Virus record (IMG/VR): IMGVR_UViG_3300032030_000047
Location: 23,624 to 87,623 of that record
Direction: 5' to 3' (one strand)
DNA from: a virus
Lineage: Duplodnaviria; Caudoviricetes
Length of the DNA stretch: 64,000 bases
The notes under the pieces were generated by a model. It saw only the letters and a list, made by a program, of their open reading frames with translations, searched no databases and was not told the origin of the DNA. The position numbers were made by a program, and so were the translations under genes. Positions 1-17,948 of this stretch are shown in pieces; the first letter of the stretch is position 1, and every line of letters starts with the position of its first letter.

Positions 1-442
1 CACGATGGGTATATTTAGAAGGATGGTTTTTTGCTATTACAGTCCCATCTAGTTGCCTATAAATCTTTGATTTGCCATAAAAATATACAATTCCGACATT
101 AATATCATCTCTAGTATCTGCTGCGGACATATATTGCTGTAATAGACGCTCCGCCGCACTATCCATGGACAGAGAAGCATCTACTACAAATACAATATCA
201 TATACATCAACGCTAGTAGTTGGTATTTTTAGCATTATATCAGACTCATAGTTTTCATCCAAATTAGTAGCTGTTTTAGTAACAGTCACTTTATTCAGAT
301 TAGTATGAGCAATTGTTGGTATATTTACCTCACCACTATCTATTGATATTTCTGGGGTGTACTCGTCACTTTCTATAATTGTCTCAGCAATACTAGCAAA
401 TGGCATCATGAGGGCTGTTAATATTGCTAGAAATTTTTTCAT
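1..442 (-). CDS. Secreted VWA-domain protein (partial, runs off the left edge)
   Basis: Hand translation: MKKFLAILTALMMPFASIAE signal peptide, then VTKTATNL...DIVFVVDASLSM (MIDAS DxSxS); GGAG RBS. Absent from the ORF track. Confidence 0.75.
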   Translation of the reverse strand, partial: MKKFLAILTALMMPFASIAETIIESDEYTPEISIDSGEVNIPTIAHTNLNKVTVTKTATNLDENYESDIMLKIPTTSVDVYDIVFVVDASLSMDSAAERLLQQYMSAADTRDDINVGIVYFYGKSKIYRQLDGTVIAKNHPSKYTHR

Positions 443-456
443 TATGCATTACTCCA

Positions 457-840
457 TTACTTGGTTAGTGTTACGGTTACTCGGAAAATCCAGTCTGCAT
501 TATCTGCATTTAGATTAAAACTATAGGTTTCGCCGCCATCTATAGAGAACCAATCTCCATCGGGCGCTTTAGCTTCCCATCTATAAGACTTGTTATAATC
601 GGCGGGATTATAATAATCGGATTGTTCTGTAGTAACATTGGCAGTAAGCGTTACTGTAGCGCCTTTCTCTAGTGTCTGATTAGCTTGCGCGCAACTAATT
701 GATACATGCCAACCAGGGTCTGGTAAAGCCATTGTGACATTGGGGTCGTAGCCCTCACTTGTCGCGGTGCCCTCCGACAGAGCCGGAATAACTGCAAAAC
801 ATAGCGCTAGAGTCATAAGTAGTACGATTAGTTTCTTCAT
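457..840 (-). CDS. Secreted/exported protein, Ig-like beta-rich domain
   Basis: MKKLIVLLMTLALCFAVIPALSE signal peptide; VTLTANV...YRW...Y...FRVTVT pattern; AGGAG RBS. Confidence 0.6.
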   Translation of the reverse strand: MKKLIVLLMTLALCFAVIPALSEGTATSEGYDPNVTMALPDPGWHVSISCAQANQTLEKGATVTLTANVTTEQSDYYNPADYNKSYRWEAKAPDGDWFSIDGGETYSFNLNADNADWIFRVTVTLTK

Positions 841-939
841 TGTGTATTCCTCCTTTTATTTTAAAATAAGGACGCCAATAATGGCGTCCATACATCGCAG
901 CCAAAAGGCGGTAGGTTCCAAGCTCCGCCTAATGGAAAG

Positions 940-1023
940 TCCGGGTGGTGGGATTCGAACCCACAAGGAGCTTCGCTCCGACAGATTTTAAGTCTGTTGC
1001 CTGGGCCGTTCGGCTACACCCGG
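940..1023 (-). tRNA. trnL: tRNA-Leu(TAA), long variable arm
   Basis: CCGGGTG/CACCCGG acceptor, ACAGA-CT-TAA-AA-TCTGT anticodon arm, GTGGG-TTCGAAT-CCCAC T arm, A73. Confidence 0.92.
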
Positions 1024-2110
1024 ATAAAATACAGGATTCGTTCGCCACACGTCTATGGTCAAGCAGAGTATTAAGTGAAGTAGCTTTCTCATCACTCCTG
1101 TAAATTTGATAGTATAAAACCCCGTATGCGAACTATCATTGCGCTCTAGAAACGCCTGCTTTGCTGTCTCGGGGATCAATTTACGGATTCTTCATCCGGG
1201 ATTAATTTATGGGATATTCATCCCATTCTTGATTTCGGGGAATCTCCCCTGCGGCCAAGAGAAGCCTTATCTACGGCGCGAGAGGCGTGCTAGGTTCTTG
1301 ACCTAGCGGGTTGCGCTTCGGCGTAGGGGTGGACCAAGCCTTTCAACTAGCCCAAACGGTAGTTTTTCAGTCATACTGGACATCCTGTAATAGAAAATGC
1401 AACTAGTATTCAGCACCATTTCTCGATGCTGGCATCTCCTAATAGGAAGCACGTACTCATTAAGCACATACCACGACTAGTTCCGACATTTATAACGCGC
1501 GCGTCTCAGTCGTCAGCAATCGCGCTAGATGAATGGTCTATTTTTTACTTGCTACTGCCATCACCATCGAAAGCGCAAGCTATATATTTATCTAACCCCT
1601 ATAGTGGGTGGTTTTCGCGTTTTATATACCGATTCGGAAAACATAGAGACCGGTTGTCCGTTTCATATGGTAGAATACATCGACCGGTACGGGCGTCCGG
1701 TCGGAACGGCTCATACTACCAAAAATACTAGGCACATTAAAAAAACTTTTAATAGCAAGTTATTCCTCATAGGTTTGCTGCGTGTGCCTATAACATGACA
1801 CCTTATATTTTATCAGAATATATGTAAATGATTATAAAATTGCTGTCGGTGTCATTTTAATTACCGAGGCCCTCGCATATACGTAATATGTGGATACCTC
1901 GTGCCTCCTGTACCTTACAGGTCGGTCTGTCTATTCTGTATACATGCTATTTTAGTATCACTCTTTTGGCATAGCTGCCTCACCACGGCTGTCGTCGCTC
2001 ACGAGACCTGCGTCCGTAGATAGTATGGGCGTACCATTGCTATCTATTACCACAGCGCCGGACCTCAACCGGCCAGTCATATCCTGTCAATTCAGGCTTT
2101 ATGTGGTTGA
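1024..2110 (-). ncRNA. Candidate large structured ncRNA region (ROOL/GOLLD-like context; family unassigned)
   Basis: About 1.08 kb between two tRNAs with no credible ORF or RBS and many stem-loops (CAGCATC/GGTGCTG, CTAGGT/ACCTAG, GCCGG/CCGGC, TAGATAG/CTATCTA, CCTGTA/TACAGG). Strand inferred from the co-oriented tRNAs. Confidence 0.45.
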
Positions 2111-2111
2111 A

Positions 2112-2186
2112 TGGTACCCTATCCCGGGGATGATCCGGGCCTTCGTGCTTGAAGGGCACGCGACTTAACCGATTGTCCAATAGGGC
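2112..2186 (-). tRNA. trnE: tRNA-Glu(TTC), non-canonical (C33; T-loop ATCATCC)
   Basis: GCCCTAT/ATAGGGT acceptor plus ACCA; CGTGC-CC-TTC-AA-GCACG; CCCGG/CCGGG T stem. Confidence 0.8.
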
Positions 2187-2278
2187 ATATCAAAGAGGGC
2201 ACGTTTTATAGTGCGGTGCCCGAGCACTAACACTCTTTCACCAAATGCTGCAGAGGTGAAGGGAATGTTGAAGTAGCG

Positions 2279-2396
2279 CGGGAGATAGAGGAGTTGAACC
2301 TCTCTAGCGCGGTTAATTGTCTGATATAGGGCCTGCCCCTATTATATCTCTTTGGTATCAGGCCAGCCGCGTGCTAATCCGATTAGCGAATCTCCC
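2279..2396 (-). tRNA. trnN: tRNA-Asn(GTT) interrupted by a 47-nt insertion (2317-2363) between anticodon positions 34 and 35
   Basis: GGGAGAT/ATCTCCC acceptor, G73, GCTA/TAGC D stem, AGAGG-TTCAACT-CCTCT T arm; removing the insert gives CGCGG-CT-GTT-AA-CCGCG. Confidence 0.8.
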
Positions 2397-2415
2397 ATAT
2401 CTTTCTTACAAATAT

Positions 2416-2444
2416 ATTATAATATAATTTTGTAAGAAAGTCAA
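2416..2444 (-). promoter_or_regulatory. sigmaA-type promoter upstream of tRNA-Asn/Glu and the ncRNA region
   Basis: TTGACT-17 nt-TATAAT. Confidence 0.75.
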
Positions 2445-2447
2445 TGA

Positions 2448-3053
2448 TTAAATTTTTTCCCATTCTTCATCGGAATAAGAATTAATTTCTTTTTTTGTCC
2501 TTGGCAAATTCATACTGTCACACCATTTACGAATACTGTTATCTTCTACTCCAAATTGTTTTCCAATTTGAGTAAAAGGCATAGTTCGAATTAATTGCTT
2601 TAATTCTTCTCGTGAAGGTCTTTCACAAGCTCTTCTAGCCTTTGCTGCACAACTTGGACAGCGAATCGCGGCAGAATCTATTTGACAATGGCAATCAATA
2701 CAATAATTTAATTTAGCAGTCATTTTATCATTACGTTCATTAATTAATCTTTGTGCTAATTCATTATTGAACACATGCTCCGTTGGAGCATCATAATAAC
2801 CGCTATGCACTCCTCTATGACAATTCGCGCATAATAAAAAACATTTTTTTACTTCATTTAAGTCAGTTTCAATATCATGACAAGTTCCTCTTGAAGATAT
2901 TCCATAATCCTTTTTAGTCGGGTCTTCGTGATGAAATTCTAATGCGTCTGCGAATAAATCAAAACCGCATATCTGACATTTTCCACCTAAAACCTAAATA
3001 AGATTTTGTTTTCTTCTTCTACGATAATTACTTACATCTTCTGCTCTACTCAT
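2448..3053 (-). CDS. HNH endonuclease (201 aa, 1 TAG)
   Basis: AGGAGG RBS; KCQICG...LEFHH...LLCANCHRGVH, then a C-terminal CxxC/HTH region; needs TAG readthrough at NLI*VLGG. Confidence 0.85.
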
Positions 3054-3136
3054 AATAATTCCTCCTATGAATTAAAATTATGGCCGGTAATAGGAGTACC
3101 TTCATCTCGTTGGTCATGACTCCAACGCTACCCAAA

Positions 3137-3255
3137 CTAGACGTACTCATAACCGCGCTTCTGCCAATTGAGCGACCATCCAATGGCTGGATGGGTTGGA
3201 TTCGAACCAACACTTGACGGGCTCCCAAAGCGAAGAAATATTGCTGATACGTCTA
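3137..3255 (-). tRNA. Candidate circularly permuted tRNA (TGG anticodon): 3' half 3231-3184 precedes 5' half 3182-3153
   Basis: Acceptor CCATCCA-G-CCA-T-TGGATGG pairs 7/7; joining the halves gives CGGGC-TT-TGG-GA-GCCCG; flanks TAGACGTA/TACGTCTA pair. Confidence 0.6.
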
Positions 3256-3258
3256 AAG

Positions 3259-3330
3259 CGACCTTACGCAGAATTGAACTGCGGTTTCAGGCGTGACAAG
3301 CCTACGTAATTACCACTATACGATAAGGCC
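3259..3330 (-). tRNA. trnD: tRNA-Asp(GTC) copy 1
   Basis: GGCCTTA/TAAGGTC, G73, TAGGC-TT-GTC-AC-GCCTG, CGCAG-TTCAATT-CTGCG. Confidence 0.9.
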
Positions 3331-3382
3331 AGATGGCGCTTTCGCGCCGTGCATACTAAAAGGTATGCTGTTATGATCAGAG

Positions 3383-3454
3383 CGACCTTACAGGGAATCG
3401 AACCCTGGTTTTCCGGTAGACAGCCGGATGTAATAACCTCTATACGATAAGGCC
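3383..3454 (-). tRNA. trnD: tRNA-Asp(GTC) copy 2
   Basis: GGCCTTA/TAAGGTC, G73, TCCGG-CT-GTC-TA-CCGGA, CAGGG-TTCGATT-CCCTG. Confidence 0.92.
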
Positions 3455-3625
3455 ATATAATGCCGAGCACACCCTCGGCTTGGACTATTAGGGCCGTACC
3501 AATACTGGCGCGTATGCTTTAAACTTCTATCACCCTACTGTAAGAGATTATAGTGAGTAGTCGCTCACTAGCAGTAGGTTGCTAGCCGCGCATCGGTTTA
3601 GTCACCGTTTTTGCTAAGGTGAACG

Positions 3626-3698
3626 TAGCGGGAACGGGATTCGGACCCGTGTTTGTTGGGTATGAGCCAACCGTGCTAGACCTCTGTACTATCCCGCG
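3626..3698 (-). tRNA. trnM: tRNA with CAT anticodon, initiator(fMet)-like
   Basis: CGCGGGA/TCCCGCT with unpaired 1:72, GTTGG-CT-CAT-AC-CCAAC, A73. Confidence 0.8.
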
Positions 3699-3729
3699 AT
3701 AAAATTGCCCTACTCCCAACTTCTCATGG

Positions 3730-4107
3730 GTACGCCGCATATGGAATCGAACCATCTTCTACGCCATCTCTTGGCGTTTGGGAACTCCATTCCCACCTAC
3801 GGTTTTCGGGCGCTATACCAAGTCTGCGCTTGGACTACGTGTAATTATCCTCAGTGTCACTGAGTCTCGTTTTACATCCGCCGATGCCATACGTATGTAG
3901 GAGTTCCTTTGCATTCATGTAGCGTTGGATAGCCATACAAATCAATCCACAGCCTAGCCGAATATTCCTTTATTGAGCCTTCACACTGCTCAGGGTGGAG
4001 AGTCTAGGTATACCGCCTCCCTATTCGCGTGTCACCTAATTGTATTTAAGGGCCGACTAACAACGACTGCCCCTGCATCTTTTACCTCACGGCTGGCTTG
4101 ATGCGGC
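3730..4107 (-). ncRNA. About 380-nt candidate RNA closed by a tRNA-like acceptor plus T-arm domain
   Basis: 5' GCCGCAT (4107-4101) is complementary to ATGCGGC (3740-3734), which follows ATGG-TTCGATT-CCAT; internal hairpins; no ORF with an RBS. Confidence 0.4.
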
Positions 4108-4112
4108 CATAG

Positions 4113-4185
4113 TCCGCCACCAGGGACTCGAACCCTGAACCAATCGGATATAAGCCGAGTGCTCCACCAATTGAGCTTGTGGCGG
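4113..4185 (-). tRNA. trnI: tRNA-Ile(TAT)
   Basis: CCGCCAC/GTGGCGG, A73, GCTC/GAGC D stem, loop CT-TAT-AT, CAGGG-TTCGAGT-CCCTG. Confidence 0.88.
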
Positions 4186-4314
4186 TTATAATGCAAGTTA
4201 TTAGGATTTTATTTCTGCACTTAAACGTTTTTATTGAGGTATCTCTAGCGGGACTCTTGGCACTTGCTCCCCATTCCCAGTCCAAACTGTCATCTTCCCT
4301 CATTCAACATAATT

Positions 4315-4343
4315 ATTATACAATAATTTCTGCTGAAAGTCAA
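4315..4343 (-). promoter_or_regulatory. sigmaA-type promoter for the tRNA cluster
   Basis: TTGACT-17-TATAAT with extended -10 TG. Confidence 0.75.
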
Positions 4344-4350
4344 ATATTAG

Positions 4351-4533
4351 TTAATCAAAGAGTTCAGAAAGTCCTTCTGTAGAAAAGCCTGCGGATGCGA
4401 GAAATCTTGCAAAAGCTTCACACACTTCATCGCGCGGAATACCATTTTCATTTTCTACATCAAAATGAATCTCATTTCCAGAAACATTGCCATCTTCGTC
4501 CTCAAATTCATACCAGAAACTAATTCTTTCCAT
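4351..4533 (-). CDS. Hypothetical protein (acidic, 60 aa)
   Basis: ORF with GGAG RBS, tightly packed after the upstream gene. Confidence 0.65.
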   Translation of the reverse strand: MERISFWYEFEDEDGNVSGNEIHFDVENENGIPRDEVCEAFARFLASAGFSTEGLSELFD

Positions 4534-4536
4534 CTT

Positions 4537-4797
4537 TTACTCTCCTTCCCTTTCTTCATTAATTATAGCACAAATTTCTTCTCTAGTCAAATACTCATCT
4601 TCCAATTCATCATAAGAAAAATTCATAATAAAATCGTCCAACATAGCTTCTCCTTTCAGATCAAGAAATTTATGTTTGCGATTCTGTTCGCAGTAAGGAC
4701 ATGAACCATGATTTCGACAAGAATAATCAAATACTTTCGAGCCATGATAGGGCTTCCGATGTTCTTTCCCAGACTTAATAGCCTTATCCAGTGCCAT
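4537..4797 (-). CDS. Hypothetical protein with CxxHxxCxxC motif
   Basis: AGGAGG RBS directly after the 4820-4848 promoter; SCRNHGSCPYC. Confidence 0.75.
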   Translation of the reverse strand: MALDKAIKSGKEHRKPYHGSKVFDYSCRNHGSCPYCEQNRKHKFLDLKGEAMLDDFIMNFSYDELEDEYLTREEICAIINEEREGE

Positions 4798-4819
4798 CTC
4801 TCACCCTCCTTACATATAT

Positions 4820-4848
4820 ATTATACACGAAATTTGAAATAAAGTCAA
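4820..4848 (-). promoter_or_regulatory. sigmaA-type promoter
   Basis: TTGACT-17-TATAAT with extended -10 TG. Confidence 0.8.
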
Positions 4849-4869
4849 ATAAAAAATTCCGTAAATTTG

Positions 4870-5185
4870 ATTAGCTAGTGGCGCTAGTGCTCAAAGATAC
4901 GGAAAATTATGGCGCTGAGGTTCGCTATTCCTCTGCCATCGGGCGATATGTCGTGTCGCCTTACGCCTCTCTTCACACCTCAAGGATTGGTGAATGCACA
5001 TCCGTAGCATCAGTACGAACGAGGACTTTCGTGCTCGAATTAACGCTTATAGATATTTTACAGACGCTATAAGTCGTTGGATACTTTGCTTTCCTAGGCA
5101 AGCTAAGACATAGTATCAGTGTCTGAAGTACTTATACGGTGCTTTCATACCGCTTCTCTATTGTCGCGATAGGCTAGAGAAGAAC
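4870..5185 (-). ncRNA. Candidate about 310-nt multibranch structured RNA downstream of tRNA-Gly
   Basis: Stems TTCTCTA/TAGAGAA, CTTATAG/CTATAAG, CGAGCAC-GAAA-GTCCTCG, GGCGA/TCGCC, ATGGC/GCCAT, TACGGA/TCCGTA; no credible ORF. Confidence 0.4.
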
Positions 5186-5190
5186 CTAAG

Positions 5191-5261
5191 AGCACCATGC
5201 GAGACTTGAACTCGCCGCATCTGCTTGGAAGGCAGACATATTTCCGCTATACGAATGGTGC
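5191..5261 (-). tRNA. trnG: tRNA-Gly(TCC)
   Basis: GCACCAT/ATGGTGC, U73, TCTGC-CT-TCC-AA-GCAGA, GCGAG-TTCAAGT-CTCGC. Confidence 0.9.
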
Positions 5262-5278
5262 AAATAGCCCGAAGGCTA

Positions 5279-6202
5279 TTATCTATGTCGACGTTTTACT
5301 TCTTCTATTAGACTTTGCTTTAAATATATACGATATAATTTATTCCACACCATTTCATAAAATTCGGGCTTTACTAAATAGTAACATACTATACGTAGCC
5401 ATACTTCAGGTGTATTAGTGCGTCCTGAAATTTTAAAATACCGAATCCCCTTATCAGAAAGCTCTCGCACTCTGTCTAAAGTAACCATATGTTCGCGCGC
5501 GAAAATACCTGCAACACATTCATCTGCAGAAGGTGAAGAACCAGCAGAATCGCAATGAAGAACTTGCTCTTCTTCTGTAAGAGGCAAATTTTTATACATT
5601 TTACTTAACTGTAAATAGTGTTTCGATCTTTCAGGACAATGACTACGACAAGGCTCTGCACAAACAACTTCAATATTATTCAAATGTTTCAATTGTTTAA
5701 TATATTCGTCATCATTATTACAGTTGTAATTCATGACATAGATATTGTTTTTAGTTAATTCATTAACTTTGTCTATATCAGTAATATTTAAAGTAGTAGA
5801 ATAAATAATATCTAATTGTGGATATTCTCTTTCCAAATACTGCTTTAGTATCGGAGAAAACAAGGTTACAGCATCGTGCGGGCGCATATAAGTATGTAAA
5901 AAGTTATTACAATCTGGGTCTAAGACATCATGTTCATCTAAAAGCAAATTAGTACATACATGTCGTATTTGCATAGGTGTTGTATTAATCCATTGCATAA
6001 TATCTTGAATTGGCGTAGTATTAATAATATTTTGCGCCTCTCGACCACCGTTCCACATTAGATATGGTGGAAAATCATATACGTTGTCCATTACATGATC
6101 TGCGATAAATTGCTCTGGATATTGTTGTTTATATTCATATAATAATTTTACCAAAGGAAATTGCCGAATATATCCAGGAATTGAAAATAATTTATCAGGC
6201 AT
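5279..6202 (-). CDS. U32-family-like Fe-S protein (307 aa)
   Basis: EPCRSHCPERSKH Cys cluster, a later C...C pair and FKISGR resembling the U32 xKIxGR motif. Confidence 0.55.
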   Translation of the reverse strand: MPDKLFSIPGYIRQFPLVKLLYEYKQQYPEQFIADHVMDNVYDFPPYLMWNGGREAQNIINTTPIQDIMQWINTTPMQIRHVCTNLLLDEHDVLDPDCNNFLHTYMRPHDAVTLFSPILKQYLEREYPQLDIIYSTTLNITDIDKVNELTKNNIYVMNYNCNNDDEYIKQLKHLNNIEVVCAEPCRSHCPERSKHYLQLSKMYKNLPLTEEEQVLHCDSAGSSPSADECVAGIFAREHMVTLDRVRELSDKGIRYFKISGRTNTPEVWLRIVCYYLVKPEFYEMVWNKLYRIYLKQSLIEEVKRRHR

Positions 6203-6647
6203 TGTGTGTCTCCAATATTTTTTTTAATTCAGATAAATCTCTCTATTTTTGTATAAAATAAGATAATATTTCACGCGTAACCAAGAATAATAATTCTTGT
6301 AATAAGAATGAATTTGCTTCCTTAGGCAAATTATCATATATATTTAAGACTATATCGACATGACGCGGTTTTCGCGCCAAAGCACGCAAAAGAAAGTATA
6401 ATTCTAAATACTATATAGCTATTGGATCTGTAATATAATATAATTCTGCATACTGTTTTGTAAACTGGACAATATAATCTCTTAATCGTACATAATCAGT
6501 AGTATCTAGATTGCTTTCATAAAATAAATTTCCCCAGTTAATATATGACGGGGCTATCCAAGAATTTAAGTATGAGGACATTGTATCAACAGAAGGTACT
6601 TTAAATTGCTTCATAGCATAAAGTGCCCTTAATTTGCTAACATTCAT
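6195..6647 (-). CDS. Hypothetical helical protein (150 aa, 2 TAG)
   Basis: TAG readthrough extends it to a TGA overlapping the next start; N-terminus MNVSKLRAL resembles the upstream gene's MDVTELRLL. Confidence 0.7.
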
Positions 6648-7153
6648 TCAGATATATATTTTTCAGCGAGAGTCATACGATCATATTCTTGCTCTTGCTC
6701 TAGTTCAGACAGTAATTGATCAATTTCTTCATCGTCCCCAATACTGTGAATTATTAAAGCTAATACATATCTATATTTAATTTCCGTTTTTAATTGTGTT
6801 ATTTCTGTTTTATCCGATTCAACTTGAAAAGCTTCTTTTAATTGCGGCAAATATTCTATATTAATACCTTGAATTTGAAAGATGAATAAAGAAAAGAAAT
6901 GACATAATACTGTGCGTTCTCCTTCAGTATAGTATTCTTCATATACTTCATCTACAATAGGCTTAAAATAATTATAATCGCGCGCATAATCTATTAAATA
7001 TGCCTCATTACGAATTAAACCAATTACACTAAAAATAGCTCCCATTGGATATTTAAAACGTGGAATATAATTTTTTATTAGCTATATTTCATCTTCATTA
7101 GGATTTCTTTTAGCATTAAAAATCCTTAATAAGCGTAACTCTGTAACATCCAT
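6644..7153 (-). CDS. Hypothetical helical protein (169 aa, 1 TAG)
   Basis: True start has an AGGAGG RBS at about 7160; the frame stays open through one TAG into the annotated 133-aa ORF. Confidence 0.75.
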
Positions 7154-7165
7154 TTAATTTCCTCC

Positions 7166-7879
7166 TTAACCATTCGGATTGTAACCCCAAGCAAATGAAC
7201 ATCCGCCATTAAATGAAGTACACCAACCATTGCAATTAGTTGAACATGTGTCACCGCATCCCTGACAAGCATTACTGCAGCCTGTACATCCTTTGCAACT
7301 ACCGCTACAACTGCCACTACAAGAACCAGTGCATGTATTACTGCAACCTTGACAGCTACCTTGACAGCCACCACTACAAGAACCAGTACAAGTACCACTA
7401 CATCCTTTACAAGTGCCAGTGCATGTATTACTGCAACCTTGGCATCCGCCACTACAAGAACCAGTACAAGAACCGGTACAACTCCCACTACATGTACCAG
7501 TACAACTGGTACAGCCACGACAAGCACCTGTACATGTACTATAACAAAGCCCAGTGCATGAACTATTACAATCGGTCGAATTGGCCGTTAAGGAATAATT
7601 CTCATTAGATGTCAATCTAGTAGCCGCGGCTTGAATAGCATATACTAAACTGCCTTGATTAGCTGTTAGTCCAGTTGGGCTAATACGATTAATATTACCT
7701 ACTGTTTCATTAAAATGAGAAATTTTAACAGGACTTCCTGCTGCCATAGTTTCGCTCCAGCCGGTATTATAAGCAGCAAGTGATCCGTTAAAGCGTCTGC
7801 GATACATTTCATTATTAACTCGTGTTTTTAAAGCTTGCATATCACTTGCTGTTAAACTATTTCCAGCTGTTAACGCCAT
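7166..7879 (-). CDS. CXXX-repeat modification target: fibre-like N-terminal domain plus 33-Cys Gly/Ser/Thr-rich repeat
   Basis: C-terminal about 134 aa is CXXX/CXX repeats with small flanking residues; starts 6 nt after the radical SAM stop. Confidence 0.8.
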   Translation of the reverse strand: MALTAGNSLTASDMQALKTRVNNEMYRRRFNGSLAAYNTGWSETMAAGSPVKISHFNETVGNINRISPTGLTANQGSLVYAIQAAATRLTSNENYSLTANSTDCNSSCTGLCYSTCTGACRGCTSCTGTCSGSCTGSCTGSCSGGCQGCSNTCTGTCKGCSGTCTGSCSGGCQGSCQGCSNTCTGSCSGSCSGSCKGCTGCSNACQGCGDTCSTNCNGWCTSFNGGCSFAWGYNPNG

Positions 7880-7885
7880 GACTTA

Positions 7886-9196
7886 TCACTCCTCGGAATG
7901 TTCAAAATCCGCCAACGTGAGCAACATATCATACTCGTCGTCGTCAATTAGATATTTTGCTGTTGTACGGTCTAAATAAACAGGCATTCGTTTTTCTGAA
8001 TGTAACTGTCTAAAAAATTTATTTAAATAATAACTATTAGCTAAAGAGCGAGCGCGTTGCATCCAACAAAGACCTGTATCTCGTTTGTCTAAAATACCTC
8101 CAAACTTTTGGTAATTCCAAGCTGCACACCAAGAACAACCAGAAGCAACGGAACAATTAAAACATTCATCTGTAGATTGAGTACGTCGATTAATTGCTTT
8201 CATTTTATACCAATAATCTTTTTCTTTTTCTGTCTGATAAATTCCATGATCTACATTGCCTATAATAATAGGATCTACTTCTGTGCCTAAAGAACTAGGC
8301 ATATAGCGTAGACATGGATATGCATTTCCATCAGGGTCAAAAGCCAACATATCTCCAGTACCACCGCACCAGTTAGTTAAATTACTACTGAGAAGTGGCT
8401 TGCCATAAAATTCTCCAAACATACTCGAAAAAACACCTTGCTTAGATAAAATTTTATCTGCAAGCTGTTTTAATTGTATATAATATATCTTTGCTTCCTC
8501 TATGGTCCATTTACGTTCATTTATTGGATTACCAACAATAAAAGCGCATTCTTTATCAACAAAAAAATCTACTATTTCACTCAGCATAGGCAAATTTTCT
8601 GGTGAAATTGTAATTTTTGTACCAGGTACTTGGTGTCTTACTGTTCGCCAATCTTCATACGCGGCAATAGCTCTATCAAAGCTACCATTGCCATCATAAT
8701 CCTTTCTACAAGCATCATGTACTTGTTTTGGGCCATCAATAGTAATGCAGAGACTTAAGAAACTTAAGAATTCATCTACATACTTTTGAAATGCATCTGT
8801 AAAATAGAGTAAGCCATTGGTAGAAATGTTAAATCGAAAGTTTGTTGTCCACGGATGATCTAACTCTATACATTTATTGAGAAAATATCTACTGCCATAC
8901 TGAATAACGTCCATATTCATCAGAGGTTCGCCGCCGATAAATTCAATAATAATACCTTTAGTATGATGATTAATTAAAGTATTTGGATCGTTTTTCGCAT
9001 AGGCTTCAAATAGTAAGTCCATTCCTTTTTTCATGACTTCTTTTGTCATGAATTTATGTCCTTTATTAATTTGATAACAGTAGGAGCAATTTAAACAACA
9101 ATCATCAGTTACTTGAAACGTTATAGTCGGACAATTGACTTTAGGGTCTGCTGACCTATAACGTTTCATGATATAATTATGAAACTCGTGAAACAT
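7886..9196 (-). CDS. Radical SAM/SPASM peptide maturase, CXXX-repeat target family (436 aa)
   Basis: ITFQVTDDCCLNCSYC (CxxxCxxC), FIGGEP, STNG, ITIDG, NWCGG...YPC, ECFNC...GCSWC...C SPASM cysteines. Confidence 0.9.
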   Translation of the reverse strand: MFHEFHNYIMKRYRSADPKVNCPTITFQVTDDCCLNCSYCYQINKGHKFMTKEVMKKGMDLLFEAYAKNDPNTLINHHTKGIIIEFIGGEPLMNMDVIQYGSRYFLNKCIELDHPWTTNFRFNISTNGLLYFTDAFQKYVDEFLSFLSLCITIDGPKQVHDACRKDYDGNGSFDRAIAAYEDWRTVRHQVPGTKITISPENLPMLSEIVDFFVDKECAFIVGNPINERKWTIEEAKIYYIQLKQLADKILSKQGVFSSMFGEFYGKPLLSSNLTNWCGGTGDMLAFDPDGNAYPCLRYMPSSLGTEVDPIIIGNVDHGIYQTEKEKDYWYKMKAINRRTQSTDECFNCSVASGCSWCAAWNYQKFGGILDKRDTGLCWMQRARSLANSYYLNKFFRQLHSEKRMPVYLDRTTAKYLIDDDEYDMLLTLADFEHSEE

Positions 9197-9489
9197 TAAT
9201 TATAAAACTCCAATGTATGCTGCGCGAAGTTAAAACTAAAATTCATCCCTGCTCCCTGAGGACGATATTTATTAGCAATTTCATTCTTAAGTTTTTCCAA
9301 ACGAATAGAAAGTTCAATTGCGGCATCCCATTTCTTATCCAGATAAGAAATTTTCAGGCCATCTACTCCTTCATTATAATTATACAGTAGATAACTTAAT
9401 ACGCCCATATAACCATTGTACTCGTCAAAAAGTATCTCTACCTTTTCAATGTCCTCGCTAGAAACATCTACAACTACTCTGTCTTCCAT
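9196..9489 (-). CDS. CXXX-system-associated small protein (97 aa)
   Basis: Start MEDRVV with AGGAG RBS; stop/start overlap with the rSAM gene; paralog of 11375-11647 (YNxYMxxLxYL...YxDKKW). Confidence 0.7.
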   Translation of the reverse strand: MEDRVVVDVSSEDIEKVEILFDEYNGYMGVLSYLLYNYNEGVDGLKISYLDKKWDAAIELSIRLEKLKNEIANKYRPQGAGMNFSFNFAQHTLEFYN

Positions 9490-9522
9490 ATCCTTTAATC
9501 TCCTTTTATATAAAATAATAAG

Positions 9523-9610
9523 CAGCCCCTGAAAGATTCGAACTTTCATAACCTCGGCAGAGGATATAACGGTTTTAGAGACCGGCGTCTTGCCATTAGA
9601 CGAAGGGGCT
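9523..9610 (-). tRNA. Amber suppressor tRNA (anticodon CTA) with a 21-nt variable arm
   Basis: AGCCCCT/AGGGGCT acceptor, G73, GTCT/AGAC D stem, CCGGT-CT-CTA-AA-ACCGT, GAAAG-TTCGAAT-CTTTC. Confidence 0.9.
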
Positions 9611-9648
9611 ATAAAAGGGCTGATTCTCGGCTCAGCCCAGAGCCGTCA

Positions 9649-9993
9649 TCAGACCATGAAAATCTTATCGAAAATATCAAACAAAGTAGGAATATCCTCG
9701 GGATTGGAGCTAGAAAAATGATACGTATGATACTTATTTACAAATGCATTGAGCGCATCCTTATAAGCATTCTGCGCCTTAACCATCTCCTTACGCGCGG
9801 CTTCGACCTTATCAGCCATTGCCTTGCGCTCGGCTGCTTCCTTTTCTTTCTTCTCCTTCTCTTCCCGTAGAGCCTTTTCCTTTTGAATCTTTTCCAGATT
9901 TTCCTGTTCTTTTAGTTCAAATTCAGCACGATTTGCTTCCTCTACTGAATTATAGAACTTACCGGTGCGATCGCTAAATACCTTAATAGCCAT
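9649..9993 (-). CDS. Hypothetical coiled-coil protein
   Basis: GGAGG RBS, own promoter, E/K-rich helix, no TAG. Confidence 0.75.
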   Translation of the reverse strand: MAIKVFSDRTGKFYNSVEEANRAEFELKEQENLEKIQKEKALREEKEKKEKEAAERKAMADKVEAARKEMVKAQNAYKDALNAFVNKYHTYHFSSSNPEDIPTLFDIFDKIFMV

Positions 9994-10057
9994 ATTACTA
10001 CCTCCCTATGTAGTAAAAAATATATTTAAGCAAGTTCCTTTCCTTGCTTATACATAT

Positions 10058-10086
10058 ATTATACACTGAATTTTGAAAAAAGTCAA
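10058..10086 (-). promoter_or_regulatory. sigmaA-type promoter upstream of the ORF / suppressor tRNA / rSAM2 block
   Basis: TTGACT-17-TATAAT with extended -10 TG. Confidence 0.75.
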
Positions 10087-11378
10087 GTTTTAGATAGAAG
10101 CAATAATTTATTATATTCTTTCAATGTAATCAAATGCATTGCAATATCAACAGGTAAATACATCTTTTTACGTTTGGCCATATTATGTTTTCTATAATAT
10201 TTATTCCAATAATAAACGCCAGCAAGAGCTTCTGCACGGTGCATCCAACATATGTTGGTACTACGTTTATTGTATGTGCCAAATTCATTATAGTTTTCAG
10301 CTGAGCACCAGGCGCAACCTGACGCGACAGGACAATCTAAACATTCCTGTGTTGATTGTGACTGTCGAGTAACTTTTTTCATATCATCATATATAGCCTT
10401 ATATTCTGGAGTGTTATATATACCATGGACATTGCCGATTACTATAGGTTTACGCTCTGGACTTAGTGAACTTGCCATATAACGTAAACAAGGATACGCC
10501 AGTCCTTGTGGGTCAAAAGCTAACATTGCAGATGTACCGCCACAATAGTTATTAGTCTCACTTTCTGGAACTGGTTCTCCTTTGAAGTCAGAAAATAAGG
10601 AACTTTCTGCGCCTTCTACTTCAAGCAATCTATCTGCTAACTTAATTAGTAATTTATAATATAACTATGCTTCTTCTTCTGTCCATTTATGCTCAAATAT
10701 AGGATTAGCATGAATTGTTGTACAACCCTTAGATAAAAAGAAATCAAATATTTCTCCGATTTTAGGTAGGTTTTCAGGCGCAATTGTAACTTTAGTATCT
10801 GGTATATTATGCTTCTTTACAAGAAACCAATCATTCCACGCGGCCATAGCTCTATCGAAACTGCCAGTACCGCCCAAATCTACTCGACAAAGGTCGTGTA
10901 TATCTTTGGGCCCGTCTATTGTAACATTCATACTGATAAGGCTATGATATTTATCTAAGAATGCTTGTACCTTTGGCTCAAAATAGAGTAAACCATTTGT
11001 ACTGATGGAAATACGGAAATTGGTAAGCCAAATATGATCGCGTTCACAGCATTGTTGGATAAAATATTCTACAATATAATCCATCACATCTACATTCATA
11101 AACGGTTCGCCGCCGATCATATCCAGAATGATACCATATGTATGTTTATTGATGACCATATTCTCGTCATTCTCTTCATACAATTTGAATAGTAAGTCAA
11201 CTGCGTCCTTAGCCACTTCTTTACTCATCATCGCATGACCCTTATGCGTCTGATAACAGTAAGAACATTTTAAACAACAATCATCTGTCACCTAAAAAGT
11301 GATATTGCGGCATTCTGCCTTTGGATCCTCAAAAGAATATATAGATCTTACTTCCTCTGAATAGTCATGACTTTTCAT
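10083..11378 (-). CDS. Radical SAM/SPASM peptide maturase paralog, CXXX-repeat target family (431 aa, 2 TAG)
   Basis: ITF*VTDDCCLKCSYC aligns with the paralog's ITFQVTDD; ATGA overlap with the upstream gene; joins the 208-aa and 181-aa fragments. Confidence 0.9.
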
Positions 11379-11647
11379 TCTTTGTAAAACACCACCTGGG
11401 TATTATCAAAGTCAAATTCATATCGATCCCATTCGCCCTCAGGTTTATATTTAGCTTCAATTGCTGATTTAGCAAGATCAAGTTCAATCCATATATCTGC
11501 TGCTTCATTCCATTTCTTATCGTAAATATCTGTACTAAAAGTATTAGCAGCCAGATATTCTAACATACTCATATAGGCATTGTATTTGTAAAATAGACGC
11601 CGCACATTTTCACATTCTTCATGTGTAATATCAATTGCTTGCTTCAT
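11375..11647 (-). CDS. CXXX-system-associated small protein (90 aa)
   Basis: ATGA-coupled to the rSAM gene; paralog of 9196-9489. Confidence 0.7.
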   Translation of the reverse strand: MKQAIDITHEECENVRRLFYKYNAYMSMLEYLAANTFSTDIYDKKWNEAADIWIELDLAKSAIEAKYKPEGEWDRYEFDFDNTQVVFYKE

Positions 11648-11708: not shown

Positions 11709-11737
11709 ATTATATCATATATGGAGGAAAAAGTCAA
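11709..11737 (-). promoter_or_regulatory. sigmaA-type promoter for the rSAM1 pair
   Basis: TTGACT-17-TATAAT. Confidence 0.75.
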
Positions 11738-12141
11738 ATATTTATTTCCTGCCACCCCGCTGGGTAAGCACTTGGTGACCAAATATTATTGTCAATTGCG
11801 CTTTCATATACTTTGCCTTCAAACATAACGCGGTCGCCGCGCATATATGTGTTAGTACTATCAGGCTGTTCCCATTCTGGAATTACATCTGGATCTGGGA
11901 TTAGTACTTTAGCCCAGAGACTTGGTGCGGCAGTAGGAGTCCATGCTTCTTGCGCCGCATGTGATTGAAGACATTTGTATAATACATTTTCGTATTGTAC
12001 TCTGTCTCCTTGTAAATATGCGGCAGTAGCGTTCCAGACAGGAAATAACTGGACTGCTTCAATTGAGTCCTCATCGGATAAGGATAGGGCTGCTTTTTCT
12101 ATATAAGGGCGTAGCTTGCGCGCTAATTCAAGTAATGTCAA
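11734..12141 (-). CDS. Tail-associated protein with carbohydrate-binding (CBM5/12-like) repeats
   Basis: W...Y..GDRV.Y...LYKC.Q.H and W.QP....Y..GDRV.F.G..YES..D.N.WSP motifs. Confidence 0.7.
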   Translation of the reverse strand: MTLLELARKLRPYIEKAALSLSDEDSIEAVQLFPVWNATAAYLQGDRVQYENVLYKCLQSHAAQEAWTPTAAPSLWAKVLIPDPDVIPEWEQPDSTNTYMRGDRVMFEGKVYESAIDNNIWSPSAYPAGWQEINI

Positions 12142-12392: not shown

Positions 12393-14339
12393 TCAACCTC
12401 CATAGTGTTGCCGCCATTTATTAATGTTGGCTTCGTAGGTTGCGTTCTTAGACGGAATATACATAATACGTCCATTGAAGTAACGTAGTGTCGCATTCGC
12501 GGCAACGTCTGCGCTATAGTTAAATGGGCCTGCTCCATCACCGGAACTATAAAGGCCGCCAATACCGAATAGGTTAGTACCATTTAAGGCGGTATTAGTC
12601 CAAAGTGCGTCACCGACTGGGAAAGCACTATTGGCATTATTGGCGCACTCAATTGGTAGATAAGCCCAAGTATAGTCTGGATTCTGATAACCCATCGCGG
12701 AAATCCAGTTTGGCGCTGCGCCAGGAAGCTGGAATCCTAGTGGAGTTTCACCATGATATGGAATACCACCTTCAGAGTTGCTACCGCCGCGAGTTGTAAT
12801 ATTAGCAATTAGCCGCCACATGCTACCCCATGGATTTTCCATACCACGATAGCTAATTGCGCGTAAGCCTGCAGTTGTAACGGTTTCCTTAGTACCATCA
12901 CGGTCAATAACAGTTTGAGGAGCGGCGCCAGTGCCGTTACCGATACTGGAAGTAGAACCAGTAATAATAGCGCAACTAGTGGCGTTATTGCGAGCAACAT
13001 TGACTACACCTTTTTCTAGGGCAGATTGTCCATTCATAGTACCAAATTCAACCATCTCTAGCATCTGATTGGCAGATTCAAATTCGAGGTTGGTAAGCTG
13101 CCAACCTTCACCACGATTAGATGCCATTGTTTTAACTTGGTTTAGGTTTAGATTTTTGCCGATACCAGTAAAGATTTTTGCGCCCGCAATAGAGCTGAGT
13201 TTATCTTCGGAGAAAGTAACATTCTCATCGTTTAAAAGATATTCATCTGCGCTAGTGTCATAGACGCTGCCTTCAAATGCGGGAAGAAGAACGTAATCGA
13301 GTTCTTCGTTTCCTAGCTTGAATAGAGGATGAAGCTCAAAGCCTGCGCGCTCATCTGCACTTAGAATTAGACTTTCTTTTTGTACGGTTACGCCGCGGCT
13401 GCCTGCGCTATCTTTGATAAAAGTGCGAGAGTAGTAGAACTTGGGCTGGTAAATCATTACCTGGCCATTAGAGCCATCTTCGCGGTAATTAGAATCGCCA
13501 TAGAAGGCCGTAATTGTGCCATCATCGGCTACATTACAACGCATGCGGCCGCCGTACATGGTGTATCCATTGAAATCGCTTCCGGCCCTACGACTTGCGG
13601 CATCCTGAGTGCGCTCAAAGGACTTATTTTCGTAGTCGATTAGTAAGCCGAGTGTGCCATCGGCGCTGTAAGTACCGGCTTTTACTAGCGCCTTGATGAT
13701 TGCTTCTTGTGTGGCATCACCGGCTTTGATGTTTCCATCTGAGCCAACAATAACAATCTTACCGGCGTTTTCAGTGCCAAGGTTGCTTACTCCGCCAGAG
13801 CTGGAGCCGCCGCCAGATGGAATGCGCGCGATTGCGCTATCAACATAGGCTTTAGTTGCAACTGTGGATGTATCGGCTTTCTGCGCGAGTGCGGCAGTAA
13901 TAGCCTTTTGAGTCATGCTACCATCTTCGTTATCGCCTGTAGATTTATATAATTTCACTACCTCGGGCATAGTAAAGGGTGTGGCGTTGTCAGGATAGAG
14001 AACTTTATAGCCACGACCATTGTAGGTGTCGGATGAGGTCTGGGTTAGCTCAAAAGCTAACTTGGAAATCTCATCATCTACGTCTTCTGTTGTAAGAGTA
14101 TTAATTTGTGCTTCTTGCGCTGTTTCTAAAGCTTCCTGCGCAGTTGCAAGCAAATCCGCGGCTTCAGATTTTGCCGTTGCAATTTCAGTCGCAGCATCTT
14201 CTACTGTTTGAATTGCCGCTGCTGCATCCTATTCTGCTTTTTCTGCCTTTGCCGCTGCGGCATTAGCCTTAGCAACATAAGTTTCGGTTTTTCCTTGTGG
14301 AGTCATTGCTTTTGCAAGCATTACATCCAATATATCCAT
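12393..14339 (-). CDS. Tail fibre/receptor-binding protein with C-terminal CLec/FGE-like domain (648 aa, 1 TAG)
   Basis: TAATG-coupled start MDILDV; SYRGMENPWGSMW and terminal GG.Y..G..AG.F...GR motifs. Confidence 0.65.
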
Positions 14340-16167: not shown

Positions 16168-17808
16168 TCACCTCAATCGTATCCAAATCCTTCCGTTTAC
16201 TTTCACGCGTCCTTCGCCCCATTCTTCGTAGGTAGGAATCTCAGAAATTGTACCAATAATACAAGAAGGATAATTACGCTCTTCCCAAGGAGTCATAAGA
16301 GATACGGTACCATTAGGGCCAGAGCATACGGCACATCCAATATGCTTTTTTAATTTCTATAAGTCTTCATATGGATAGGCTAACACTCTTCCACTTACTG
16401 CAACTGGGGTGTTATATCCCTAAGAATGATTTTCTCCTATTGCAAAACCAAATGTATCAGAAATAATTTCGCATCCACGCTATAGGCGCTTAGTTGTTAA
16501 GGCTAACATTCCATTGCCGAGTTCTCTGATGCAACGACCTGGCTCTTGACGTTTTCTTTCCCATTTATTATCTTTCCTATATTCAGCATAATCATTCCAA
16601 GCCGCGCCCATAAGTACATTACTGGTGCTGACATAAACATTAGTATTAAATACTGCTGCATCAGTATTACGAATAGCTTTGGTTGAACCGCTGATATAAA
16701 ATTTAGTATTATTAACTGGGGTCATAATACAACCCACATCACCCCAAGTAACATCTCGATTGTCATCGCTAAATTTAATTAAGGCTTGTCCAGTCGTACC
16801 TCCTACGGGGATTTCATAGAAGGGCTCAGAATATTGAAAAAATAATTGGCCTTCAGTACCCTCTACAGGTAAAGCATCACCATAGTCGATATTTTCTGTT
16901 CCATTTAAACCATTTACAGTCAATGCGCCCAACATCGTGTCACCGGCACGCTATACATAGTCTGAAGAGTTTTTAGTCGCCATACTTCCAAATGCACCCT
17001 AATTACAATAAGCTAAGTGAGAAGCATTTGAAGTTGTTTGATAACGACCATCCCAATAGGCTAGTAAATTAACAGTTGGAATATTAGTATTATTTGCCCA
17101 AGTAGAAGCAGCAGTAAGAGCATTAACAGTTGTCCTATTTTCAATTGCCCGAGTTGTAAAAGCAGCAGTAGTTGTATTACCGGACATAATTAATTGATTT
17201 GCAGTGAAACTATCTGCTCCAGTTCCTCCTAGCGATACTGGTAGTGTGCCAAATGTTAATGCCCCGTTAGTACTAGTCGCATAAGCCGCGCCTTTAGCAG
17301 TAGATTTCCATGTAGGCGCGGAAGTGCCGCCAGCTGATACTAATATCTGATTAGCAGTACCCGCACTAGTTGGAGCATATATTCCAGTTGCACGAGTCTA
17401 TGAAGCATTATTTACAGTTACAAGTCCATAATATACAGAGCGCTCCGTGGTAAGTCCTGTCCCAGTGCCTAATGCGCCATTAGTAGTAGCATCATCTACT
17501 CCGTATGTAACTGCGGCACCAAAAGCGCCTTTATTGCAATAAGCAAGATTAGATGAAGAAGCATTATATAAACCATTCCAATATGCTAAAGTATTTTTAG
17601 TTACTAAATGAATATCATTAGCGGCAGAAGTCCATTCTAAGTTACCTGACGATGTTTTATTATATATATTTCTGCTAATTAAGTTTTTATTAGCATCAGT
17701 AACTACTGCCTAAGAAGCTGTAAGACTAGAGATATTTTCATTAGTTGTATAAGTTGTATCCGTAACGCGCAAACTTCCTTGCACGATTGTCGATTTTAAG
17801 ATTGCCAT
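16168..17808 (-). CDS. Tail fibre protein with probable C-terminal chaperone-like domain (546 aa)
   Basis: Joins in-frame fragments; internal repeat LAYCNKGAFG / LAYCN*GAFG; AAWNDYAE...SDTFGFAIG C-terminus. Confidence 0.7.
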
Positions 17809-17948
17809 AAGTTCGCGCCTCCTATTATTTTAAAATAACAATAAGGAGCAGCACAGCTGACTCCTTATTGATTCAGTAGAGAGACGGCGCGAAGCATCGG
17901 CTCTCTACCAATTATATTATACTATATTTGGTTTTGAAATGTCAAGTA

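Follow-up and report, generated by a model that had tools for sequence, protein, structure and literature searches.

The locus at positions 5279-11647 of the DNA analysed here (the window, a 64,000-nucleotide stretch covering positions 23,624 to 87,623 of the IMG/VR virus record IMGVR_UViG_3300032030_000047) encodes two radical S-adenosylmethionine (SAM)/SPASM enzymes, rSAM1 and rSAM2, each with a small partner gene overlapping its start, together with a cysteine-rich protein referred to as the Cys-ladder protein. It can be read as two related CXXX-repeat (TIGR04115-type) maturation modules, A and B, in a TAG-recoded phage of ruminant-gut Bacillota; combined with the mechanism proposed below, this explanation has in our estimate an even chance of being correct. 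Gene content, family matches, synteny, paralogy, the borders of an accessory cassette and the existence of relatives without a ladder protein were directly observed. The record, a virus contig, is 87.6 kb long and estimated to be 48% complete, and public sequencing runs place it in the sheep gut.

In the proposed mechanism, the 97-aa protein partner1 and rSAM1 would form a complex. This complex, whose enzyme has no fused recognition domain of the CteB type, would recognise the ladder protein through its helical N-terminal domain (N-domain) and the invariant junction C-x3-C-x-G-x-C-x3-C. The SAM cluster and two auxiliary SPASM clusters might then staple the 124-residue ladder with numerous short-range Cys thioethers, in which Cys sulfur would be bonded to a carbon of an acceptor residue as in sactipeptides and ranthipeptides; the stapling of rings is pictured as in PapB acting on CX3D repeats. 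Such cross-linking would turn a chain rich in Gly, Ser and Thr into a rigid, protease-resistant and redox-independent rod. The N-domain would stay attached, and the product would be a late, tail-associated structural protein, not an exported peptide. Here we infer the complex, its thioether chemistry, the place of the product in the virion and what module B acts on, and the estimate given above applies to this full explanation of the two modules.

The maturases, their partners and the ladder protein

All genes of the locus lie on the minus strand, and reading frames were called with TAG as Gln. Read from 11647 to 5279, the order is as follows.

11375-11647, minus strand: partner2, 90 aa, small helper of the clade-B maturase
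10083-11378, minus strand: rSAM2, 431 aa, two in-frame TAG codons, clade-B radical SAM/SPASM maturase
9649-9993, minus strand: KE114, 114 aa, Lys/Glu-rich helical protein
9522-9610, minus strand: amber-suppressor tRNA, anticodon CTA (ARAGORN)
9196-9489, minus strand: partner1, 97 aa counted from ATG 9489
7886-9196, minus strand: rSAM1, 436 aa, no TAG codon, clade-A radical SAM/SPASM maturase adjoining the ladder gene
7166-7879, minus strand: Cys-ladder protein, 237 aa, 33 Cys
6644-7153, minus strand: helA, 169 aa, one TAG codon, helical accessory protein
6195-6647, minus strand: helB, 150 aa, two TAG codons, second helical accessory protein
5279-6202, minus strand: U32-like protein, 307 aa, final gene of cassette A, Pfam PF01136

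Module A consists of partner1, rSAM1, the ladder gene, helA, helB and the U32-like gene. Module B consists of partner2 and rSAM2, flanked by a CBM5/12 protein and KE114, and the suppressor tRNA separates the two modules. An earlier sequence-only reading of the locus had described two full radical SAM/SPASM enzymes with overlapping paralogous partners, a 33-Cys repeat protein 6 nt past one of them, an amber suppressor tRNA inside the locus and a tail module beside it. Gene calls, identities, the cysteine count, the tRNA prediction and the tail-protein match upstream bear out each of these.

rSAM1 and rSAM2 share 54% identity (E 1e-173), and the frame of rSAM2 is open only when both TAG codons are taken as Gln. 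TIGR04115 was the top NCBIfam match of both (342.2 bits for rSAM1 and 347.8 bits for rSAM2; E 1e-102), with a margin of about 190 bits over the next family. Two thioether formers came next, PapB (145 and 155 bits, respectively) and then the SCIFF maturase (112 and 92 bits), and the anaerobic sulfatase maturase reached about 60 bits. Both enzymes have the SAM-cluster motif C33/C37/C40 (CX3CX2C) and the SPASM cysteines C277, C295, C345, C348, C354, C357 and C377, none of which varies among 22 relatives (alignment A1). The nearest solved structure to rSAM1 is that of CteB (5wgg, E 1.7e-29), and a weaker structural relative is an anaerobic sulfatase maturase (PDB 4k36, E 4e-12). Because the match to CteB begins at residue 86, the phage enzymes are without whatever precedes that residue, which we take to be the peptide-recognition domain of CteB.

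The enzyme tree, for which quick IQ-TREE and FastTree runs agree in topology, places rSAM1 as sister to the ladder-adjacent enzyme of locus L001 (support 98; clade A) and rSAM2 within a clade of 13 (support 100; clade B), with clade supports of 97-100. Clades A and B are sisters, which places the maturase duplication inside this phage lineage. Other arrangements were also seen among the relatives. In locus L003 a third radical SAM protein (460 aa, CNLKCEYC motif; 16652-18034) directly follows the second maturase, L015 has a similar 455-aa open reading frame (ORF), and the second maturases of both have diverged strongly, their long branch falling outside the TIGR04115-type clade. Some orthologous maturases are longer: the rSAM ORF of L071 has 800 aa, that of L031 582 aa, and P0090 763 aa. 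P0090 carries the precomputed families PF14528 and PF13403, presumably homing-endonuclease and Hint domains, which would suggest intein-interrupted maturase genes.

Each partner gene is joined to its maturase: partner2 overlaps the start of rSAM2 by 4 nt, and the stop of partner1 at 9196 shares 1 nt with the start of rSAM1. The start of partner1 is most likely ATG 9489 and not 9549, because the longer ORF would overlap the tRNA; ATG 9489 has an AGGAG-type site in front of it. Partner1 and partner2 share 32% identity (E 1e-17), and partner1 falls in the partner family (alignments A2 and A4). The match of partner2 to TIGR04116 is full-length (positions 3-89 of 90) but weak (13.6 bits, E 0.058; cut-off 50 bits), and TIGR04116 matches at E <= 0.01 were obtained for 5 of the 32 partner family members, the best at 4e-4. 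Both the size of the partners (about 90 aa) and their place beside a maturase fit what is expected of TIGR04116. The AlphaFold2 (AF2) model of partner2 has a predicted local distance difference test (pLDDT) score of 96.8 and consists of a strand, two long helices and two strands. It gave no Foldseek match in PDB at E <= 1e-3, and VIA-align returned generic helical hairpins only (Z <= 8.3). Protein-cluster lookup led to unnamed, mostly viral clusters.

The Cys-ladder gene begins 6 nt past the stop of rSAM1. Its product is composed of the helical N-domain (residues 1-103), the junction C104-x3-C108-x-G-x-C112-x3-C116 and the ladder. All 33 cysteines lie within residues 104-227, making up 27% of that segment, and over the 32 intervals the spacing is 4 in 23 cases, 3 in eight and 7 in one. 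The residues between the cysteines are almost exclusively G, S, T, N and Q; the segment holds one Asp, no Glu and hardly any Lys or Arg. The protein reached 17.1 bits against TIGR04114 (cut-off 20) and 19.2 bits against TIGR04117 (cut-off 50), and it matches phrog_6085 ('unknown function') at E 3.4e-12, beyond which Pfam and PHROGs gave no functional assignment for ladder proteins. The sequence-only reading had proposed families TIGR04114 to TIGR04116 for the system. This was right in kind, TIGR04115 being the top match of the maturases, but every window score against these families falls below the curated cut-off.

The junction motif and the residues E24, R28 and G32 are invariant, and N-domain and junction are common to phage and bacterial-genome loci. 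A hidden Markov model (HMM) search at E <= 1e-3 extended the N-domain family to at least 820 representative clusters, whereas a word-based search found just two proteins. In nearly all of the 150 best N-domain hits, which belong to proteins of 120-520 aa, the match is N-terminal. A BFVD fold search with the N-domain returned a single uncharacterised homologue. In three Eubacteriaceae-type loci (Eubacteriaceae / Clostridiales Family XIII; L094 4254-5237, L093 4200-5301, L098 4318-5315) the N-domain ORF ends soon after the junction motif and is followed by a separate Cys-rich ORF of 183-259 aa with 44-53 Cys. This arrangement could reflect a split gene, a frameshift or a true form with two genes.

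The remaining genes of module A are accessory. helB overlaps helA by 4 nt. The two had been called paralogous; a relationship was undetectable by direct BLASTP (E 0.8), and the link stands solely through L001 homologues (E 3e-13 and 3e-5). The helA profile matches the second helA-family protein of L001 at E 3e-4, and helB matches the same protein at E 3e-5. No Pfam, NCBIfam or PHROG match was obtained for helA; its family (profile E <= 1e-3) adjoins ladder genes in L001, L003, L010, L015, L020, L031 and L071. The U32-like protein matches PF01136 (E 2.4e-9, 37.3 bits; cut-off 22.4) over profile positions 117-191 of 233 only, and it has no NCBIfam match. The sequence-only reading had counted this gene as part of the system, a view that the relatives do not favour: of 9 related ladder-encoding genomes searched, only 2 had a homologue, so the gene is regarded as optional.

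The composition of the ladder also allows a different chemistry, in which it would be a metallothionein-like binder of metal or Fe-S clusters and the radical SAM enzymes would carry out another modification (Cys oxidation, for example) or cluster handling. The high cysteine content with small spacers, the detectable relationship to anaerobic sulfatase maturases and the U32-type Fe-S protein gene alongside would all suit this. It is nevertheless very improbable in our view. Thioether-forming maturases score two to three times above the sulfatase maturases, the U32-like gene is missing from most ladder-encoding relatives, and a dedicated maturase and helper beside every ladder gene mark a substrate-enzyme pair.

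Cassette A, module B and relatives without a ladder

The features that flank the ten genes and bear on the two modules are these.

5190-5261, minus strand: tRNA-Gly(TCC) (ARAGORN), second border of cassette A
11709-11737, minus strand: promoter-like site 5' of partner2, TTGACT, 17 nt, TATAAT with TG extension, 11/12, consensus match only
11734-12141, minus strand: CBM5/12 protein (CBM135), 135 aa, two CBM5/12 domains, Pfam PF02839 (E 1.9e-21)
12393-14339, minus strand: phrog_5302 tail protein, 648 aa, PHROG match

Upstream of the maturase block come the CBM5/12 protein, the phrog_5302 tail protein and then further virion structural matches. From the tail protein to the suppressor tRNA, the window is collinear at 79.6% identity with the relative G001, which keeps the suppressor tRNA at the matching place (183528-183615), and the alignment picks up again past tRNA-Gly. 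A goat-gut DNA contig fuses window position 5266 to 9518, the skipped part being exactly the U32-like gene through partner1, and a contig from a sheep-gut RNA-library run fuses 5173 to 9538. On the grounds of this collinearity and of the contigs joining both borders, module A makes up a self-contained accessory cassette (cassette A) that lies between tRNA-Sup and tRNA-Gly, spans about 4.3 kb and is carried by some close relatives and missing from others. The G+C content of its accessory genes is 0.29-0.33, compared with 0.43-0.47 for the tail genes. The RNA-library run contains the entire locus at 100% identity, as contigs, which is no proof of transcription.

A tRNA island lies directly after the tail and maturase block, both in the window (939-5261, 8 tRNAs) and in G001 (240-8616 / 183528-186644, 21 tRNAs). 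Cassette A sits within this island, beside the suppressor tRNA. An HNH endonuclease gene is also found there (window 2448-3053; phrog_2255, E 1.4e-21).

Module B closes the tail block and is the conserved copy; cassette A is the variable one. The order in clade B is fixed: tail protein, a 91-aa protein, the CBM5/12 protein, partner, enzyme and KE114. The CBM5/12 protein adjoins 12 of the 13 clade-B enzymes. Every clade-B enzyme in the tree has KE114 within 3.5 kb, and no other TIGR04115-type enzyme placed there does; in L003 and L015 a distant KE114-like ORF lies some 9 kb from the enzymes. KE114 has a promoter-like site of its own (10086-10058, 11/12, sigma-70-like) and a terminator-like hairpin (9638-9617). 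In RNA-library contigs the word depth was 49-96 over KE114 and 11-16 over the neighbouring genes; contig depth cannot rank genes, and strong and separate expression of KE114 is only hinted at.

G001 is a contig of 188 kb with a CheckV completeness estimate of 100% and a tRNA island that continues across its ends. It contains exactly one maturase (clade B), one partner, KE114 and CBM135. A six-frame search of G001 found no Cys-rich ORF and no N-domain match, and the same was true of the clade-B-only contigs G002 and G003. Clade-B enzymes and partners are thus intact, with all catalytic cysteines kept, in at least three ladder-free genomes. Enzyme homologues in phages without a Cys-repeat protein, which the sequence-only reading took as a sign against its own proposal, therefore exist for module B, while rSAM1 itself has an adjacent ladder.

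Because module B persists in relatives that lack the ladder protein, it probably has a substrate other than the ladder; either it acts on another protein or the ladder is supplied in trans. In this phage it may act on the ladder as well. Candidate substrates were sought among the conserved neighbours and none stood out. The 648-aa tail protein has three conserved isolated cysteines, and the CBM5/12 protein holds a single one, presumably a general feature of that domain. The KE114 copy in the window is without Cys, and no Cys is conserved in the KE114 family. In its most specific form, a thioether-stapled ladder rod on the tail made by cassette A together with a clade-B enzyme acting on a different, non-ladder late protein, the proposal is plausible but unlikely.

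An alternative is that both maturases act on the single ladder, making different types of cross-link or serving different repeat classes (CXXX and CXX), and that module B in the ladder-free relatives is a leftover or uses the ladder of a co-resident prophage. The two enzymes belong to one family, share 54% identity and have all cluster ligands in common, spacings of 4 and 3 are mixed in the ladder, and L001, L003 and L015 also have two or three radical SAM genes near ladder genes. Set against this are the intact clade-B enzymes and partners of the ladder-free genomes and the fixed CBM135/KE114 neighbourhood, which is missing from the other clades and argues for a function independent of the ladder. 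Joined with its clause on the ladder-free relatives, this alternative appears doubtful, if serious.

Phage tail modules and the nature of the product

The kit is widespread in related phages. Metagenomes contain more than 100 enzymes with 50-62% identity to rSAM1, several of them on contigs of 110-185 kb. Related contigs repeat the order partner, enzyme, ladder protein, helA-type proteins and a second partner-enzyme pair, so that the synteny survey called for by the sequence-only reading found the order with the ladder protein conserved. A profile scan of IMG/VR gave 67 loci, whereas a single-sequence scan found none. The trio of N-domain-ladder protein, partner and radical SAM enzyme is present in 14 distinct close IMG/VR and assembly loci, with 18-126 Cys in the ladder protein, and L001, L003 and L015 carry two or three radical SAM genes around their ladder genes. 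On the L010 contig (G410, a 181-kb relative estimated to be complete), N-domain-ladder genes lie at 179633-180046, 681-1094 and 1335-1739; this cluster runs across the contig ends, which would fit a circularly permuted genome.

The nearest enzymes in bacterial genomes are 36-53% identical, and all are from Bacillota or from metagenome-assembled genomes binned as such. The same trio is found at these loci, the N-domain-ladder protein having 23-145 Cys. Two are bona fide TIGR04115 members from Clostridia genomes, L095 (521 bits) and L090 (497 bits). Host genomes seldom carry the family (2 of 399 sampled from that class), which fits carriage on mobile elements. A prophage tail-module context was seen at all four genome loci whose neighbours were scanned. 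Minor tail and tail-fibre proteins lie on both sides of L095 (Anaerolentibacter hominis CSJ-1), genes for a baseplate wedge (phrog_6, E 2.5e-66) and a tail fibre (phrog_1780, E 1.3e-51) are immediately upstream of L105, and L099 and L090 adjoin fibre-like proteins. The idea of a phage co-opting a bacterial system probably has the direction reversed, the Clostridia TIGR04115 loci examined being tail-fibre or baseplate modules of prophages. These positions suggest that the TIGR04115-type kit is a phage structural-module system and not a borrowed peptide pathway, and the place of its product in the virion would follow from them. NCBIfam, Pfam and PHROG scans of the ten cluster proteins found no protease or transporter family, and for this reason the system is read as modification of a late phage protein and not as a natural-product pathway. 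The label of a ribosomally synthesised and post-translationally modified peptide (RiPP)-like system fits poorly with a two-domain target of 237 aa that has neither a leader protease nor an exporter.

It may still be that the ladder protein acts outside the virion, as a bioactive or host-directed, very large RiPP-like product that is released at lysis or stays intracellular; it might be directed against competing bacteria or phages, or serve as a metal or redox sink. Elsewhere this enzyme family is associated with peptide natural products, cassette A is accessory and lies among tRNA genes, present or absent in close relatives in the manner of morons, its accessory genes are lower in G+C than the tail genes, and the L001 cluster comes after holin and SH3 genes. 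However, the cluster yielded no gene for a leader protease, an exporter or immunity, and the N-domain, with about 105 residues, a predicted fold and clear conservation, is unlike a leader peptide. The trio also stands between baseplate and fibre genes in unrelated prophages, and a ladder that varies from 18 to 145 Cys is easier to understand as a spacer or rod than as a defined bioactive shape. We therefore consider a product of this kind rather unlikely.

Several points weigh against the tail-rod explanation that we prefer. rSAM1 and rSAM2 narrowly miss the curated TIGR04115 cut-off of 350 bits, and because of this near miss they are read as a probable diverged phage subclade of the family. 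Fold searches found no recognisable RiPP recognition element (RRE) fold in the partner, which would be a PqqD-like winged helix with a three-stranded sheet and three helices. The AF2 model of the N-domain, with three helices, is of moderate confidence (pLDDT 65), and a proposed likeness of the N-domain to the adjoining 402-aa fibre protein was rejected (hhalign probability 0.3%). Placement in a tail module is circumstantial, as morons and lysis genes also end tail modules, and the L001 cluster follows holin and SH3 genes and not a fibre gene. Cassette A is dispensable in close relatives, which suits an accessory function better than a core structural part. The completeness of G001 is a CheckV estimate on a linear contig. 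Finally, searchable literature yielded no experimental work on any member of the family, so that thioether formation stands as an analogy; nothing relevant was found there on phage SPASM enzymes, tail-fibre thioethers or the radical SAM genes of SPN3US.

A ladder that is cross-linked and placed on the tail would mean enzymatic, redox-independent hardening of an appendage in anoxic guts, where disulfides are unreliable, and would give a function to a family so far catalogued in silico only. The most specific form of the proposal, if true, would add a second substrate class for this maturase family and would be the first radical-SAM post-translational modification of a virus structural protein. 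The clade A/B split, the ladder-free relative estimated to be complete and the mapped cassette borders are new from this window. Testable handles are the sharp-bordered 4.3-kb cassette, naturally present or absent, and a pair of paralogous maturases of which one is tied to a ladder and the other is not. The CSJ-1 prophage of Anaerolentibacter hominis and SPN3US-like phages are cultivable entry points.

Comparison with known systems

The CXXX-repeat radical SAM maturation system was reportedly defined in silico by Haft and Basu in 2011. It brings together a maturase (TIGR04115), an associated protein (TIGR04116) and Cys-rich repeat targets (TIGR04114/TIGR04117). The window resembles this system in that the helper gene overlaps the start of the maturase and the target has Cys at every third to fourth residue, and bona fide Clostridia members have the same N-domain-ladder architecture. 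It differs in that all of its proteins score under the curated cut-offs, in that maturase and helper are duplicated, one copy belonging to a clade that also occurs without a ladder, and in the addition of helA, helB and U32-like genes and the use of TAG as Gln. The CXXX family is annotated as a bacterial peptide system, whereas the four genome loci scanned lie in prophage tail modules.

The enzymes are also similar to PapB and the CteB/SCIFF maturases of ranthipeptides or sactipeptides, the second and third best family matches, which are radical SAM/SPASM enzymes with two auxiliary clusters. PapB presumably makes freyrasin, with its CX3D/E thioether rings; by analogy, the repeated short spacing from Cys to acceptor suggests many small rings in the ladder. 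Unlike CteB, the window enzymes have no fused N-terminal recognition domain. The substrates of PapB and CteB are peptides of 40-50 aa, whereas the substrate proposed here has 237 aa and 33 Cys with scarcely any Asp or Glu acceptors, and the window cluster lacks genes for leader cleavage or export, in contrast to those systems.

SPN3US-like jumbo phages (Seoulvirus and the Erwinia phiEaH2 group) have pairs of radical SAM genes of the SPASM type that are very distant (22-24% identical). Their ladder ORFs have a different N-terminal part and no TIGR04116-like helper, and their hosts are Enterobacteria. In Salmonella phage STsAS (MH221128.1), two unannotated Cys-repeat ORFs of 130 and 157 aa (L124 3133-3525 and 3462-3935) are flanked on one side by 'putative virion structural protein 20' and on the other by the two annotated radical SAM genes, and this phage could serve as a cultivable model for the ladder question.

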